From sequence record PQ821640: a stretch of DNA of 64,000 bases; one strand, given 5' to 3'. Source of the stretch: Escherichia phage SD2. The notes beneath the pieces are model-generated. The model made no database searches. It was not told the origin of the DNA and saw only the letters and a list, made by a program, of their open reading frames with translations. Position 1 is the first letter of the stretch. Every line of letters starts with the position of its first letter. Positions 2,263 to 9,341 of the stretch are shown one piece after another. Both the position numbers and the translations under genes were made by a program.

Positions 2263-3195
2263 TTAGCCTCCAAAGAAGTTTTCTATTTCTTTACGTCGCT
2301 CTTGTGGATCTAAAGCAGCCCATTGAGTCTTAGTAAAGTTGTTTCGAAGCCATTCTAGCAAAGTATAATATTCTTCGTCAACAATTTGTTTAGCATTTTT
2401 TGGGTTGTCCCAAATCATATCCCACTTCTTATTGCCACCACGCATAAGGAATTTCTTAGCAAGATAGTATGGTGACTTAATCTTTAACAGCAAGTTAAAC
2501 GGATAGTTTGTTTCACGAACAACAAACCCTTCGTGCTTACAATGTTTAGACATTTCAACAACATCTGAAAATTTAATCATCGGATAAACTTCAGGACGTT
2601 TAAATTTTGTAATAGATGCAATCCCATCGAGCACACCTTCAGGTAACATGAAACTTGTCCCATCAAGATTTTGAATCCTTGCTCCAATTAAGTATGCGCC
2701 TGGTTCTTCTTCGACAATATGTGGATCAGAAGCATCACAGATTTCAAAAAGGAAAGTTGCTTTTGCACTTTCTGTCCACTTAATGAAATATTCTATGTCA
2801 TCACACTCTGAAACAATATGGTTCTTGGCAAGAATTGCAAAATCTGACTCTAGGCTCCCTGTTGTTGATACAATAAGTTGCCCTTTGTACACACCTACAG
2901 ATGCCATAAAACCGTTTACTTTACGGACAGCATCTACAAGTTGGTCTGCTGGAAGATCTGTACCATTCTCAAAACGATTAAAGATTTTAGTAAAAGGCCA
3001 AATAACAACATTATCTTCTGAGTCAACAACCAACCCACGACAATCTAGAAGTCGTTTGTCAACGTTCCACAAGTTATCCCAGAATACATTGTTTTTGTAT
3101 TTAAGTACAGCAAGACCAGCATACTCTCCAGATTTAACTTCTTTTTTATGTACTAAACCTTTTGCAATCAGGTCATCACAATTGAACTTAGCCAC
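2263..3195 (-). CDS. ligase-family nucleotidyltransferase, probable RNA ligase
   Basis: Covalent nucleotidyltransferase motifs: motif I KVNG, motif IV EGFVVR, motif V LLKIK; distinct from the DNA ligase at 1-1116. Confidence 0.5.
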   Translation of the reverse strand: MAKFNCDDLIAKGLVHKKEVKSGEYAGLAVLKYKNNVFWDNLWNVDKRLLDCRGLVVDSEDNVVIWPFTKIFNRFENGTDLPADQLVDAVRKVNGFMASVGVYKGQLIVSTTGSLESDFAILAKNHIVSECDDIEYFIKWTESAKATFLFEICDASDPHIVEEEPGAYLIGARIQNLDGTSFMLPEGVLDGIASITKFKRPEVYPMIKFSDVVEMSKHCKHEGFVVRETNYPFNLLLKIKSPYYLAKKFLMRGGNKKWDMIWDNPKNAKQIVDEEYYTLLEWLRNNFTKTQWAALDPQERRKEIENFFGG

Positions 3196-3196
3196 C

Positions 3197-3748
3197 TTAA
3201 TCTCCTTTGATTATCTTATGATGGTCTACAACAACAATATCACGCTTATCCATAATAGAGATGATTTCGTCAAAATGCAAGATTTTTCCGTGTGCGTCCC
3301 AACCAACATCCAACATTTTCCCATACAAATGATCAGGGAATGATCCGTGAGAGTGCCCGTGTAGCATGATTGAACCATGCCCTTGTTTATTCCAGGCAGC
3401 CATAGGATAATGACTTAAGACGAAGAACAGTTTCTGATATTTCACTTCGTCATAATACACCACCTCACCATATTCTGCAAGCACTTCTCGGTGTTTGCTG
3501 TAGTCATGGTTCCCAACACAGTAAGTAATATCCCCTTGAAGACGTGAAGCAATCTTACGGGTATCTTCTTCAGTCCCGAAACAGAAGTCGCCCAAGTGCC
3601 ACATCTTGACACCAGGACTCGTAGCACATTTATTCCATGCTTCAATCAGGGCTTCTGTCATATGATCCATATCTTCCCACTGGCGATATTCAGGAGCAAA
3701 CTCTCGAATACGTTTGTGCATAAAATGCAAATCACTTGTAATAAACAT
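3197..3748 (-). CDS. calcineurin-like metallophosphoesterase
   Basis: Motifs DLHF, GDFCFG, GNHD, HGHSHG in canonical order. Confidence 0.75.
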   Translation of the reverse strand: MFITSDLHFMHKRIREFAPEYRQWEDMDHMTEALIEAWNKCATSPGVKMWHLGDFCFGTEEDTRKIASRLQGDITYCVGNHDYSKHREVLAEYGEVVYYDEVKYQKLFFVLSHYPMAAWNKQGHGSIMLHGHSHGSFPDHLYGKMLDVGWDAHGKILHFDEIISIMDKRDIVVVDHHKIIKGD

Positions 3749-4265: not shown

Positions 4266-4640
4266 TTAATAGTTAACACGTTTAATTTCAACACCATAGG
4301 ATGAAATAAAATTTTCCTTAGCTAACATATATTTAGCGGCAGCAGAAGGATTTGATGTATGAACATAGATAGTTTTAAGAGCATCCCATTCACCAGCGTA
4401 CAACATACATTCTACGTCTAAGAACGCATGATATCCTTCTTGATCTTCTCCAAGATCATTATCGAAGTGTATCTCTGAGATGTTATTGAAATTATCTTCA
4501 TCTGAAACAAAAGATAACCAATCCTCAAAAGATTTTAACCAAATGGCATCCTCATAACCATAATCTTTAGGATCTCTTAAATCGTCTAACCAAAGAATTT
4601 TAGCCACTATCAACCCCCTTCCTGTTTCTCTTCTTTCCAA
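4266..4640 (-). CDS. hypothetical acidic protein (124 aa)
   Basis: ORF in early block. Confidence 0.45.
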   Translation of the reverse strand: MERRETGRGLIVAKILWLDDLRDPKDYGYEDAIWLKSFEDWLSFVSDEDNFNNISEIHFDNDLGEDQEGYHAFLDVECMLYAGEWDALKTIYVHTSNPSAAAKYMLAKENFISSYGVEIKRVNY

Positions 4641-6574: not shown

Positions 6575-6603
6575 TTGACTTTAGATCTATCTGTATGTAG
6601 AGT
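6575..6603 (+). promoter_or_regulatory. sigma70-like promoter (TTGACT-N17-TAGAGT)
   Basis: -35 and -10 hexamers with 17-nt spacer about 40 nt upstream of the 6643 start. Confidence 0.45.
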
Positions 6604-6642
6604 AGAGAACATAAAGTCCTAACTCAACTAAGGAGATAAAGA

Positions 6643-7536
6643 ATGAAAGTTAGTATTCTGCATGGTGTTGACTGTTATGTTACTGATGTAGACGTTAAAG
6701 TGTTTACATTCTCTGGTGGAGAACAACATGTTCAATTAGATACGAATCTATCAGGTTTCAATCATGCTACAGACAGAATCTTACTCACTTTAGAAGTAAG
6801 ATCTGCTAAAGACTTGATGACTTTGGTTATGACTAAGAATGCATTGGACAATATGCTATATCATAAACCGTATTGTGTTGATTTACTCATGTTGTATGTG
6901 CCGTATGCACGGCAAGACAGAGTGTGTGAGCCTGGGGAAGCATTCGGAGTTAAAGCATTTGCTTCTATAATTAATTCATTAAATTTCTCACGTGTTATCG
7001 TTGCTGATCCGCATAGTGATGTTACTCCAGCAGTGTTTGACAGACTCTGTGTAATACCTCAAGAAGAGATTGCTTACGAAACTTTAAAGTGGAAGTTACG
7101 TATGGAGAATTTTGCTCTTGTTAGCCCTGATGGTGGTGCTCTTAAGAAAATATTTAAATTATCTAAGAAAATGTCTTTAGATGTGTTCTGTGCAGAGAAG
7201 GTTAGAGATACCGCAACAGGTGCTATTGTTCGTACAGACATTTCTGTACAGGATTTCAATAAGCGTAACCTGATGATCGTAGATGATATCTGTGATGGTG
7301 GTAGAACTTTTATCGAATTGGCTAAAGTGCTACGTGCTCGTAACGCAGGTAAGATTGAGCTATATGTTACGCACGGTATCTTTTCTAAAGGTCTTAAAGA
7401 GTTAAGTGAGCACTTTGACTGCATTCATTCTCTTAATGTGTGGGAAGATAACATCCAAGAAGATTCTGGTGTTCTTGTTAAGAATCAGTCAGATTTGCAA
7501 CAACAAATTGTATCTCCATACGTGTGGAATTTTTAA
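6643..7536 (+). CDS. ribose-phosphate pyrophosphokinase-like protein (PRPP synthetase family; possibly ADP-ribose pyrophosphokinase)
   Basis: PRPP-binding loop MIVDDICDGGRT and DPHS motif; AGGAG site before ATG. Confidence 0.75.
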   Translation: MKVSILHGVDCYVTDVDVKVFTFSGGEQHVQLDTNLSGFNHATDRILLTLEVRSAKDLMTLVMTKNALDNMLYHKPYCVDLLMLYVPYARQDRVCEPGEAFGVKAFASIINSLNFSRVIVADPHSDVTPAVFDRLCVIPQEEIAYETLKWKLRMENFALVSPDGGALKKIFKLSKKMSLDVFCAEKVRDTATGAIVRTDISVQDFNKRNLMIVDDICDGGRTFIELAKVLRARNAGKIELYVTHGIFSKGLKELSEHFDCIHSLNVWEDNIQEDSGVLVKNQSDLQQQIVSPYVWNF

Positions 7537-7546
7537 ATAATAAGTG

Positions 7547-7575
7547 TTGACAATAGGGAGTATGCTTAGTAAGAT
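7547..7575 (+). promoter_or_regulatory. sigma70-like promoter (TTGACA-N17-TAAGAT)
   Basis: Consensus -35 with 17-nt spacer; same motif recurs upstream of many units in this window. Confidence 0.5.
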
Positions 7576-7607
7576 ACTCCCACATTAACAAACAAGGAGA
7601 CATAACT

Positions 7608-9341
7608 ATGAATATTTTTGCACCTTTTGCTACTGATTGGTACAAACCTGGTCACAAGCAGATGTACAACCAAAATACAAAACTTATTTTCTCTAATTTA
7701 ACTCCTCGTAATGATAAAAACTTTGCACACTATGCAGATCGTGAAGCACGTGGTGTGATTGTTTTAGGTATTCGTCGAGCAGTCACTGATGCTCTTGTAA
7801 CTATGTGGGATAGCTTCTTTAAAATGTCTCGTAGTGCAGCAGTAAATAAATTTTATCGTATGTCTAAAAATGCGTTAGGTGCTTCTGCTCCTTCTGCTGA
7901 ATGTTGGGGAGAATTGCACGACTTAGGTTATCTTCCGCTGGAAGTTCGATCTCTGCCAGAGGGTGTTTTGTGTCCTATTGGTGTTCCTGTATTTACTGTG
8001 CATAATACTTTAGAAAAATTCTTTTGGTTAACTAACTATGTGGAAACACTGTTGTCAGATGAAACTTGGAAGACAATGACTAATGCCACAGCAGCTTTTC
8101 AGTATAAGCGTATCGCTATGGCATATGCGATGGCAACGTGTGATAATATTGATCACGTTAACTTCCAGTGTCATGATTTTAGCCTACGTGGTTTAAGTAA
8201 TATCGAAGATGGTTATAAGAGTGGTATTGCTCATTTAGCATCTTTCACAGGGACAGATAATATTCTGGCTATTGAAACTGTGCATGATTATTATGGTATT
8301 GATTATGATCAGTTTGTTGCAGGTTCTATTCCGGCAACAGAACATTCAGTAGCAACTACTAACATTGGAGCTATTGTTGAAGACCTGAAGAAACATTTCC
8401 CACATCTTAAAGATGATGTAGATGGTCTTCGTTATGTAGCAGAGAAAGAGTTTCTTCGTCGTTATATTGAAGAAATTGTTCCAGAAGGTTTTTGTTCATA
8501 TGTAGCAGATTCCTATGATTACTGGGCTGTCTTGACTCGAATTCTGGTAGAATTGAAAGATTCCATTATGTCACGAAATGGTCGTCTTGTTATTCGTCCA
8601 GATTCAGGAGATCCGGTTAAAGTTGTTGCAGGATACAATGTTGAATCTTTTGATAACTATGAAGACCTCTTAAATAATGGTATTGCGACAGCCACTGAAG
8701 TAGTTCATTTGGCTGATGTTAATAAGTATTACAATGTTCTTCAGGATTGCAGTGTTGCTGACTGTATTGATGAAACTTATGAGATTCCTTATTGTGAAGC
8801 AGTAGGTTCTATTCAAATCCTTTGGGAAGTGTTTGGTGGTACTATCAACCGAAAAGGCTACAAGGTTCTTGATCAGCATATCGGTATGATTTATGGTGAT
8901 TCCATTACTGTTGAACGAGAACACGAGATCTTACGCCGACTGAAGAAGAAAGGTTTTGCAGCTTCCAATATTGTATTTGGTGTTGGTAGTTATACTTATC
9001 AGTTCAATACACGAGATACTTTCGGTTTTGCTGTTAAAGCAACAGGTAGTATCATCGGTGAACACGAAATTTTGGTAAGTAAGGAGCCTAAAACTGATCC
9101 TGGTAAACGCTCTGCAAAAGGTTTTATTAAGGTTGTTAAGGATACCAATGGTAATCTTTCTCTTGTAGATAATCTTTCTTTTAAAGATATCCAGGATGAA
9201 GACAATGAGTTACAAGTTATCTTCAAGGATGGTAAGGTTATTACACCACAAGTAGAAGGCCGTGATGAAACATTCACTGATATCCGCAACCGTGTTGATG
9301 TAGAGGTTCTTCGTACTATGGGAACCATCCAGGTTGACTAA
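7608..9341 (+). CDS. nicotinamide phosphoribosyltransferase-like protein (NadV/NAMPT family)
   Basis: N-terminal DWYKPGHKQMY resembles the NAMPT start; 577 aa; immediately follows the Prs-like gene. Confidence 0.7.
   Translation: MNIFAPFATDWYKPGHKQMYNQNTKLIFSNLTPRNDKNFAHYADREARGVIVLGIRRAVTDALVTMWDSFFKMSRSAAVNKFYRMSKNALGASAPSAECWGELHDLGYLPLEVRSLPEGVLCPIGVPVFTVHNTLEKFFWLTNYVETLLSDETWKTMTNATAAFQYKRIAMAYAMATCDNIDHVNFQCHDFSLRGLSNIEDGYKSGIAHLASFTGTDNILAIETVHDYYGIDYDQFVAGSIPATEHSVATTNIGAIVEDLKKHFPHLKDDVDGLRYVAEKEFLRRYIEEIVPEGFCSYVADSYDYWAVLTRILVELKDSIMSRNGRLVIRPDSGDPVKVVAGYNVESFDNYEDLLNNGIATATEVVHLADVNKYYNVLQDCSVADCIDETYEIPYCEAVGSIQILWEVFGGTINRKGYKVLDQHIGMIYGDSITVEREHEILRRLKKKGFAASNIVFGVGSYTYQFNTRDTFGFAVKATGSIIGEHEILVSKEPKTDPGKRSAKGFIKVVKDTNGNLSLVDNLSFKDIQDEDNELQVIFKDGKVITPQVEGRDETFTDIRNRVDVEVLRTMGTIQVD

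Follow-up and report, generated by a model that had tools for sequence, protein, structure and literature searches.

Phage genomes can pair a gene of the Prs family with one of the NAMPT family, and such a pair in a phi92-like coliphage (Justusliebigvirus) raises the question of which chemistry the two enzymes perform: classical salvage of NAD+ by way of NMN, or the direct rebuilding of NAD+ by an ADP-ribose diphosphokinase (Adps) and a nicotinamide ADP-ribose transferase (Namat), the two enzymes of the NARP1 pathway. We analysed the pair within a window of 64,000 nucleotides (the whole stretch of DNA studied), using profile searches, alignments to validated enzymes and the published features of both families. 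We conclude that the two genes are very probably the NARP1 of this phage, a counter to NAD+-depleting defence.

Organization of the gene pair

The initial annotation had described adjacent, same-strand genes of the Prs and NadV/NAMPT families, and both open reading frames were confirmed at exactly the positions given there, with family matches far beyond chance. ORF1 (adps; 6643..7536, + strand) starts with ATG and encodes a Prs-family protein of 297 aa, a predicted Adps; ORF2 (namat; 7608..9341, + strand) also starts with ATG and encodes a NAMPT-family protein of 577 aa, a predicted Namat. Each start is preceded by a Shine-Dalgarno sequence AAGGAG, as read from the sequence (6630..6635, + strand, 7 nt 5' of the ORF1 ATG; 7594..7599, + strand, 8 nt 5' of the ORF2 ATG). 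A Namat gene is found within 10 genes of adps in 97% of the Adps clade; here, ORF2 begins 71 bp after the stop codon of ORF1, on the same strand.

Promoter-like sites were present 5' of both genes. The first, TTGACT-17 nt-TAGAGT (6575..6603, + strand; 9/12, a consensus match only), sits 5' of ORF1 within a 370-bp AT-rich divergent intergenic region, and the second, TTGACA-17 nt-TAAGAT (7547..7575, + strand; 10/12), lies in the 71-bp gap between ORF1 and ORF2, in which a search for a terminator-like site found none. Consensus promoters for the pair, as the initial annotation had called them, are plausible in that sites exist in front of both genes but are not statistically established: the region held 15 promoter-like sites compared to 13.5 in shuffled sequences, a count not above the shuffled level. 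The form TTGACW-N17-TAAGAT was weakly enriched in the window (5 vs 1.65 expected, with 5 of 100 shuffles reaching 5), and this enrichment was left out of the evidence.

ORF1 resembles validated Adps enzymes

ORF1 matched phrog_619 (E = 3.8e-91) and TIGR01251 (118 bits) and was 100% identical to protein ATI15842.1 of phage PHB05. Entries for PHB05, phi92 and JohannJBalmer appear among the Adps homologs in Table S1 of Osterman et al., with 'Namat within 10 genes: Yes' (bioRxiv 10.1101/2024.02.11.579819). Identity of ORF1 to the Adps enzymes of Bas63, SPbetaL1 and DyoEdafos was 36%, 35% and 31%, respectively, compared to 28% for E. coli Prs, and blastp gave 137 bits to Bas63 Adps vs 72 bits to E. 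coli Prs.

The three profiles TIGR01251, NF002320 and phrog_619 scored ORF1 at 118, 98 and 306 bits, validated Adps controls at 82–139, 61–101 and 243–333 bits, and the E. coli Prs control at 423, 533 and 193 bits. The profile behaviour of ORF1 is that of the validated Adps type and unlike that of E. coli Prs. Moreover, ORF1 fell far short of the PRK01259 cutoff and of those of all curated Prs equivalogs in NCBIfam, scoring 98 bits on NF002320 (cutoff 297), 97.5 bits on NF002095 (cutoff 296) and still lower on the remaining Prs equivalog models. The sole Prs cutoff that it cleared, and barely, was that of the broad subfamily model TIGR01251 (118 vs 113). Judged by its sequence, ORF1 belongs to the phage Adps clade, apart from cellular Prs; published work gives no sequence signature that tells Adps from Prs, other than membership of the clade and proximity to a Namat gene.

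The PRPP-binding loop recorded in the initial annotation, MIVDDICDGGRT, was found at ORF1 residues 211–222 (7273..7308, + strand), where it forms the PRPP/ribose-phosphate binding loop, and the loop form DDICDGGRT was present in 91 of the 120 closest relatives. The active-site lysine is kept. In the alignment, ORF1 Lys186 (codon 7198..7200, + strand) corresponds to Lys162 of SPbetaL1 Adps, of which K162A is listed as an inactive mutant in supplementary Table 3 of Osterman et al. (bioRxiv 10.1101/2024.02.11.579819), and R188 corresponds to SPbetaL1 R164. ORF1 also contains DPHS and K-V-R-D-x2-TG-x-I; the corresponding motifs noted for Adps, (D/E)PHS and K-x-R-D-x2-TG-x-I, were contrasted with one Prs control only.

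ORF2 carries the selectivity-clamp helix motif of Namat enzymes

ORF2 matched phrog_448 (E = 1.5e-188), NF006629 (463 bits) and Pfam NAPRTase (E = 6e-38). PHROGs, NCBIfam and Pfam were dropped as a test of Namat versus Nampt, and the generic models were not used for ORF2, because validated Namats and NARP2-type Nampts pass the same ones. The profile searches that the initial annotation had suggested were informative for ORF1, which scored as validated Adps, but not for its partner, since generic models cannot part Namat from Nampt.

More specific comparisons were available. ORF2 was 100% identical to a protein of phage PD114 and differed at 2 of 577 residues from the PHB05 protein, and the PHB05 partner gene is labelled 'Adps-associated' in Table S2 (Namat) of Osterman et al. 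(bioRxiv 10.1101/2024.02.11.579819). A search of the PDB returned SPbetaL1 Namat as the top match (9W5X/9W5W, 399 bits), with the top NAMPT entry at 174 bits, and blastp gave 39% identity and 336–397 bits to three validated Namats vs 134+84 bits to a NARP2-type Nampt.

The selectivity-clamp helix (SCH) motif of ORF2, GSYTYQFNTRD (residues 460–470; 8985..9017, + strand), fits the published Namat signature GS-X-phi-X-phi-X-phi-TRD; the two stacking positions for adenine are taken by aromatic residues, Y462 and F466, whereas Nampt controls of the NARP2 type read GGGLLQQLDRD and GGGLLQEVTRD, with G and Q/E at these positions. ORF2 shares 16 of the 20 residues with which SPbetaL1 Namat contacts NAD+, and its changes at the other four are conservative (three as in Bas63, one still aromatic). 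The clamp itself spans the interface between the subunits of the dimer. In the selectivity-clamp loop (SCL) region, TPRNDKNFAHYADREARG (residues 32–49; 7701..7754, + strand), K37 aligned with SPbetaL1 R40 and Bas63 K42 and was followed by N38 (W43 in Bas63) and then F39. According to the published SCL rule, the loop supplies a residue that stacks on adenine and has Arg, Lys or Tyr as its third residue; where this is Lys or Tyr, stacking falls to the residue that follows (PMC12774641); the fit at K37 is thus partial, as N38 is not aromatic. The SCL is described as a variable loop in the same work (PMC12774641).

The catalytic core was also kept in ORF2, in which F191, R194, D217, H246, R330 and D332 correspond to F189, R192, D215, the catalytic His, R306 and D308 of SPbetaL1. 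The catalytic histidine H246 (codon 8343..8345, + strand; in PATEHS) was invariant in the alignment, and R330 (codon 8595..8597, + strand) is the equivalent of SPbetaL1 Namat R306, for which both R306G and R306A were published to abolish activity. ORF2 is a long form with insertions of ~30 aa and 57 aa (residues about 253–282 and 343–399; about 87 extra residues), one of which directly follows the RPDSGDP active-site strand. A phage contig of 51% identity and two bacterial genomes likewise combined Adps-Namat adjacency with the clamp motif. The initial annotation held that sequence alone cannot tell the two chemistries apart; this no longer holds, since the Namat clamp signature has been published, and the evidence here favours NARP1 over classical salvage.

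Accessory genes

When DyoEdafos RyDEP was searched against the window by tblastn, the best E was 0.51, and thus no homolog was detected. Neither a RyR Pfam domain nor a Macro domain was found in the ORFs flanking the pair, and no gene lies between ORF1 and ORF2. Macro, Nmnat, NUDIX and CTP_transf_like were absent from the matches listed (best 25 of 52 Pfam families, 63 window ORFs), and, outside the part that matches the window, the annotation of the near-identical phage PHB05 names no Macro, Nmnat or NUDIX; this absence of accessory domains rests partly on the PHB05 annotation, and a weak hit in the window could be missed. Neither phi92 nor PHB05 is in the supplementary tables of the aRES paper, which fits the absence of Adpp without proving it, and a PADLOC scan gave trivial PRTase-loop matches only. 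As Nmnat, Macro/Adpp and RyDEP were not found, these searches point to the plain two-gene form of NARP1, which, by published logic, should fail without Adpp against aRES-type defence, as this leaves ADPR-1''-phosphate.

Proposed function and alternative explanations

The initial annotation put the pair forward as a candidate NAD+ reconstitution counter-defence module, a proposal supported here by the presence of an identical ORF1 and a near-identical ORF2 in the tables of Osterman et al. and by the clamp motif. We infer the substrates, products and counter-defence phenotype of ORF1 and ORF2 from homologs at 31–39% identity. A host immune NADase of the SIR2, TIR or SEFIR type would split NAD+ into ADP-ribose and nicotinamide; ORF1, the predicted Adps, would then convert ADP-ribose and ATP to ADPR-PP, from which ORF2, the predicted Namat, would form NAD+ directly with nicotinamide, and the rebuilt NAD+ would permit phage replication despite NAD+-depleting defence. 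The conversion of ADPR and ATP to ADPR-PP and, with nicotinamide, on to NAD+, in which ADPR-PP is favoured over PRPP, has been published for homologs: in vitro for those of SPbetaL1, DyoEdafos and P. foliorum, and in vivo for Bas63. Rescue of infection from NAD+-depleting defence, such as SIR2-HerA, DSR1/2, Thoeris I or SEFIR, has been published for Bas63, Fado, an SPbetaL1 knock-in and ICP1_2001; the NARP1 family has an established function in Bas63, SPbetaL1, Fado, DyoEdafos, Gary and ICP1. Searches of the literature found no experiment on any phi92-like phage.

The SIR2-family enzyme of PHB05, the long-form Namat insertions and the atypical clamp loop K37-N38-F39 could together mean that the NARP1 of phi92-like phages serves purposes beyond countering host NADases, in that it recycles ADP-ribose and nicotinamide from a phage-encoded NAD+ consumer or that its donor specificity is altered or regulated, which we regard as quite unlikely.

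We consider it quite improbable that the pair carries out classical salvage, in which ORF1 would act as a genuine PRPP synthetase, ORF2 would be an NMN-yielding Nampt/NadV proper, host NadR or PncC would complete NAD+, and the NAD+ pool would rise with or without active defence. Every GenBank relative is named Prs/NAMPT, and the cutoffs of TIGR01251 (118 vs 113) and NF006629 were passed; however, the models passed are also passed by validated Namats and hence do not discriminate, and ORF1 scored far below every Prs equivalog cutoff and like validated Adps. Namat enzymes were published to keep about half of the PRPP-to-NMN activity of human Nampt in vitro, so that some classical salvage chemistry is possible, but SPbetaL1 Adps yielded no Prs product and Bas63 still beat defence in a host mutated in both pncC and nadR (both published), and the adenine clamp of ORF2 is absent from Nampts.

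A housekeeping role, in which the ADP-ribose and nicotinamide that the pair recycles would come mainly from a SIR2-family protein of the phage itself and not from host immunity, is very improbable. PHB05 does encode a genuine SIR2-family protein (PF02146, 81 bits; locus L012:12317-13129), and adps-namat pairs that neighbour an ADPR-sensing NrtR-type regulator occur on bacterial chromosomes, suggesting that this chemistry also has uses outside defence. Nevertheless, the PHB05 SIR2 gene is outside the window; it lies on the other strand at a distance of about 35 kb from the pair, which leaves no operon link between them, and every direct experiment published on phage NARP1 gave a counter-defence role; the two roles can, moreover, coexist. 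Least probable of all is an arrangement of the NARP2 kind, in which ORF2 would use PRPP to make NMN, for conversion to NAD+ by an Nmnat that the phage encodes at another locus: ORF2 shares its broad PHROG and NCBIfam families with NARP2 Nampts, but its clamp motif and SCL segment are unlike theirs, neither Nmnat nor CTP_transf_like was among the Pfam matches listed for the window ORFs, the annotation of near-identical PHB05 outside the window shows no Nmnat, and Osterman et al. saw no phage with both pathways and labelled the phi92 gene 'Adps-associated' (bioRxiv 10.1101/2024.02.11.579819).

Significance

The module described here is already known, being catalogued in the NARP1 discovery paper of Osterman et al., and is a copy of the same pathway rather than a new one; thus, this window adds no new biology, and the module can be detected by AntiDefenseFinder. 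NARP1 nonetheless allows one small module to defeat many unrelated NAD+-depleting immune systems, and owing to this breadth, identifying its carriers among therapeutic or model phages helps to predict host range. Public records of phi92-like phages label the two genes Prs, NAMPT or hypothetical proteins and could be re-annotated. We predict that phi92-like phages would resist SIR2, TIR and SEFIR NADase defences and, because the module lacks the phosphatase Adpp, would stay sensitive to aRES.

Comparison with known systems

A canonical class I PRPP synthetase (E. coli Prs) and NadV have the same folds as the proteins studied here, and the PRPP-binding loop and ARQDR motif are common to Prs and ORF1, but E. 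coli Prs has DLHA and the catalytic loop KRRPRANV where ORF1 has DPHS and K-V-R-D-x2-TG-x-I. NARP2 (Nampt and Nmnat of Vibrio phage KVP40) resembles the present module in the NAMPT superfamily, the catalytic core and the goal of NAD+ restoration. However, NARP2 is recognized by a clamp-less Nampt together with Nmnat, and ORF2 has the clamp, unlike the Nampts of nt-1 and Roth90. The NARP2 Nampts have GGGLLQ in place of GS-aromatic-T-Y-Q and a deleted TPR loop segment; they favour PRPP and require Nmnat, none of which was found here among the Pfam matches listed.

Two extended forms of NARP1 share the core of Adps and Namat with this module. NARP1-AP of Vibrio phage Gary adds Adpp, a Macro-domain ADPR-1''-phosphatase encoded in the NARP1 operon, whereas the pair studied here has no third gene within or next to it, and the NARP1 of Mycobacterium phage DyoEdafos is accompanied by RyDEP, a RyR-domain glycosidase encoded in or near the operon, which had no tblastn match here. 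The module is accordingly predicted to give no protection against aRES and no degradation of the cADPR signal.

NARP1 of the Bacillus phage SPbetaL1 provided the best solved-structure match for ORF2 (Namat, 9W5X/9W5W; PMC12774641), and the equivalents of its catalytic His, R306 and D308 (Namat) and K162 (Adps) are kept here. Identity was 35% for Adps and 39% for Namat; SPbetaL1 Namat is 491 aa long without the two ORF2 insertions, and its SCL residue is Arg40 vs Lys37 here.

NARP1 of Bas63/JohannRWettstein (genes 79–80; bioRxiv 10.1101/2024.02.11.579819) belongs to a Felixounavirus rather than a Justusliebigvirus, and the treatment of Bas63 as a phi92-like phage, under which the window would nearly match the tested system, was rejected given the literature and its GenBank record. 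Measured identities to tested enzymes were 31–39% (36% for Bas63 Adps, 39% for Bas63 Namat). NARP1 was knockout-tested in Bas63, whereas here it is predicted from sequence, and the SCL Lys is followed by Trp in Bas63 and by Asn in ORF2. In both modules a short gap separates Adps from the Namat that comes after it on the same strand, and both phages have E. coli as host. Bas63 Namat is also a long form (593 vs 577 aa here), its two insertions coincide in position with those of ORF2, and it shares with ORF2 the K-type SCL residue and a closely similar SCH motif (GSYTYQYMTRD in Bas63, GSYTYQFNTRD here).

Organisation of the locus

The source phage is a phi92-like coliphage (Justusliebigvirus, Stephanstirmvirinae), and the 3.1-kb region around the gene pair was matched at 97–99% identity by 55 phage records, among them W22, EC.P2, PHB05, phi92 and three BASEL phages. 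C. jejuni is given as the host in four 'Campylobacter phage' records (MG065639, MG065645, MG065656 and MG065689), which were 97.7–97.8% identical to this phi92-like region and look like mislabelled or contaminant genomes.

Both reading frames that the initial annotation had reported at 6643–9341 were confirmed at their exact positions on the + strand, with ORF1 at 6643–7536 (297 aa) and ORF2 at 7608–9341 (577 aa). A 370-bp AT-rich divergent intergenic region precedes the + strand block that they open. The gap between them is 71 bp, and each carries an AAGGAG ribosome-binding site 7–8 nt 5' of the ATG. The 71-bp gap contains a promoter-like TTGACA-17-TAAGAT site and no terminator-like hairpin, and a second promoter-like site lies at 6575–6603. 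The genes had been described as standing behind consensus promoters; such sites are present and plausible, but their number in the ORF1/ORF2 region (15, cf. 13.5 in shuffles) was not significant. The TAAGAT variant was only weakly enriched across the window.

Just 3' of ORF2, a 73-aa + strand ORF at 9413–9634 has two CxxC pairs and a weak RecR zinc-finger match (E=0.004); it is preceded by a TTGACT-17-TAAGAT site (9334–9362) and is missing from the PHB05 annotation. About 750 bp 3' of ORF2 begins an array of 15 tRNA genes (10089–13525, + strand; Met x2, Leu x2, Ser x2, Lys, Tyr, Asn, Thr, Gly, Gln, Pro, Phe, Ile).

ORF1 resembles validated Adps enzymes

Assignment of ORF1 to the Prs family and ORF2 to the NAMPT family was upheld by Pfam, TIGR/NCBIfam and PHROG profiles: ORF1 matched Pribosyltran and Pribosyl_synth, and ORF2 matched NAPRTase (E=6e-38), NF006629 (463 bits) and phrog_448 (E=1.5e-188). 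The loop quoted for the first gene, MIVDDICDGGRT, is present at ORF1 residues 211–222.

Profile searches had been proposed as a check, and we put validated Adps proteins and E. coli Prs through the same libraries as ORF1. ORF1 behaved as a validated Adps and unlike E. coli Prs with TIGR01251 (118 bits, cf. 82–139 for Adps and 423 for Prs), NF002320 (98, cf. 61–101 and 533) and phrog_619 (306 bits, E=3.8e-91, cf. 243–333 and 193). In blastp-type pairwise comparison it scored 137 bits to Bas63 Adps vs 72 bits to E. coli Prs. ORF1 K186 aligns with K162 of SPbetaL1 Adps, the active-site lysine whose K162A mutant is inactive. Two local patterns, which are our own observation against one Prs control and not a published criterion, recurred in ORF1 and in each of the three validated Adps: (D/E)PHS, found in 114 of the 120 closest relatives, and K-x-R-(D/N/E)-x2-(T/S)G-x-(I/V/L), found in 108; the corresponding segments of E. 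coli Prs read DLHA and KRRPRANV.

ORF2 carries the Namat selectivity-clamp signature

Generic NAMPT models placed ORF2 in the expected family but, when calibrated with controls, failed to separate Namat from Nampt, and were therefore not used to choose between them. In pairwise comparison ORF2 scored 336–397 bits to three validated Namats, against 134+84 bits, in two pieces, to the nt-1 Nampt. The closest solved structure was 9W5X/9W5W (399 bits), confirmed as SPbetaL1 Namat; the best NAMPT entry reached 174 bits. The selectivity clamp of SPbetaL1 Namat recognises the adenine of ADPR-PP (structural study, PMC12774641). Its signature in ORF2, GSYTYQFNTRD (residues 460–470), resembles those of Bas63 (GSYTYQYMTRD), SPbetaL1 (GSFTYQYNTRD) and DyoEdafos (GSFTYQHNTRD), whereas the stand-alone NARP2-type Nampts of Vibrio phage nt-1 and Klebsiella phage Roth90 have GGGLLQQLDRD and GGGLLQEVTRD there and are without the TPR loop segment. 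The catalytic His (H246) and R330, equivalent to SPbetaL1 R306, are present, and 16 of 20 NAD+-contacting residues of SPbetaL1 Namat are identical. Conservative changes account for the remaining four: K37, S432 and Y462 are the Bas63 residues in place of R40, A362 and F392 (S432 also that of DyoEdafos), and F466 replaces Y396 with another aromatic side chain.

Probable NAD+ reconstitution by plain two-gene NARP1

Published homolog tables contain the phi92, PHB05 and JohannJBalmer proteins as Adps with 'Namat within 10 genes: Yes', and tag their partners 'Adps-associated' (Osterman et al., bioRxiv 10.1101/2024.02.11.579819). The PHB05 Adps entry and ORF1 are the same sequence (100% identity); 2 of the 577 ORF2 residues differ from the PHB05 counterpart, and none from the PD114 protein. 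With these entries and the Namat signature, the reading as NAD+ reconstitution is supported. The initial annotation considered the chemistry indistinguishable from sequence; catalogue entries, clamp signature, contacts and scores now discriminate, and several independent lines indicate that the pair very probably encodes NARP1 (Adps + Namat) rather than Prs + Nampt salvage. Because Namat retains some PRPP-to-NMN activity in vitro, classical salvage may make a minor contribution alongside NARP1. NARP2 (Nampt + Nmnat) is argued against, as no Nmnat was found in ten flanking ORFs, among the Pfam matches listed for window ORFs (25 families) or in the PHB05 annotation; no phage with both pathways was reported by Osterman et al. 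(bioRxiv 10.1101/2024.02.11.579819).

NARP1 has known extensions: NARP1-AP adds the Macro-domain phosphatase Adpp and uses ADPR-1''-phosphate left by aRES defence, and RyDEP, a RyR-domain glycosidase, channels cyclic ADPR signals into NARP1. No third gene lies between ORF1 and ORF2, and Macro, RyR, NUDIX and adenylyltransferase domains are absent from ten flanking ORFs. RyDEP as tblastn query gave no match, Pfam profiles run on 63 window ORFs showed no accessory domain among the matches listed (25 families), although weak ones could be missed, and no Adpp, RyDEP or Nmnat is annotated in the remainder of the near-identical PHB05 genome. Since none of these three was found, the pathway is predicted to be plain two-gene NARP1.

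A cREC_REC 'cyclic-phosphate processing receiver' protein (4266–4640, minus strand, 124 aa; PF20274, E=1.6e-14) has as minus-strand neighbours (3197–3748, 2263–3195 and 1–1164) a weakly matching calcineurin-like phosphoesterase, a T4-type RNA ligase and an ATP-dependent DNA ligase; the cluster resembles an RNA-repair module. A cREC and RNA-ligase/phosphoesterase neighbourhood also adjoins the pair on the metagenomic contig L010. Any tie to ADPR-cyclic-phosphate, a by-product of NARP1, is purely speculative.

Comparison with known systems

The adps-namat pair is kept on L010, a 58-kb phage contig with a 51%-identical relative, where an HNH/NUMOD4 homing endonuclease gene (L010:5884–6462) lies between the two; the gap thus tolerates insertion and tight translational coupling is not needed. 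Chromosomal pairs in Geminocystis sp. NIES-3708 (L008:5001–8191) and Thorsellia anophelis (L011:1296–3901) show 45–46% identity to ORF1 and have a clamp-bearing partner. The next gene after the Geminocystis pair encodes an NrtR-type regulator (NUDIX + WHD_NrtR), a family that senses ADP-ribose. This suggests ADPR-responsive housekeeping use of NARP1 chemistry, in line with the authors' comment that NARP1 may have a housekeeping role in some bacteria.

The module is already known, these very proteins being in the discovery paper's tables, and NARP1 is included in AntiDefenseFinder. The systems tested by experiment are those of Bas63 (a Felixounavirus), SPbetaL1, Fado, DyoEdafos, Gary and ICP1, whose proteins share 31–39% identity with the two from the window; the Adps homolog of ICP1 reaches about 40%. 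Our literature search turned up no experimental work on phi92-like phages, and we therefore infer the probable substrates and phenotype of ORF1 and ORF2 from these tested homologs.

Only three leads are mildly novel: a co-occurring phage-encoded SIR2-family gene, an atypical clamp-loop residue and long-form Namat insertions. The genuine SIR2-family protein, PHB05 gp035 (L012:12317–13129, minus strand; PF02146, 81 bits), is encoded outside the window, about 29 kb to its left, and is a potential NAD+ consumer sharing a genome with an NAD+ rebuilding pathway. By a published rule for the clamp loop, which is described as variable, adenine stacking would fall to the residue after the loop Lys/Tyr (W43 in Bas63); ORF2 has K37-N38-F39 (7716–7724), with Asn right after Lys, then Phe, and conforms to this rule only in part. 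ORF2 is longer than the crystallised SPbetaL1 enzyme (577 vs 491 aa) through two insertions, at 8364–8453 (residues about 253–282) and at 8634–8804 (about 343–399, directly after the RPDSGDP active-site strand), and the corresponding positions also carry insertions in Bas63 Namat (593 aa) and in the L010 relative (566 aa).
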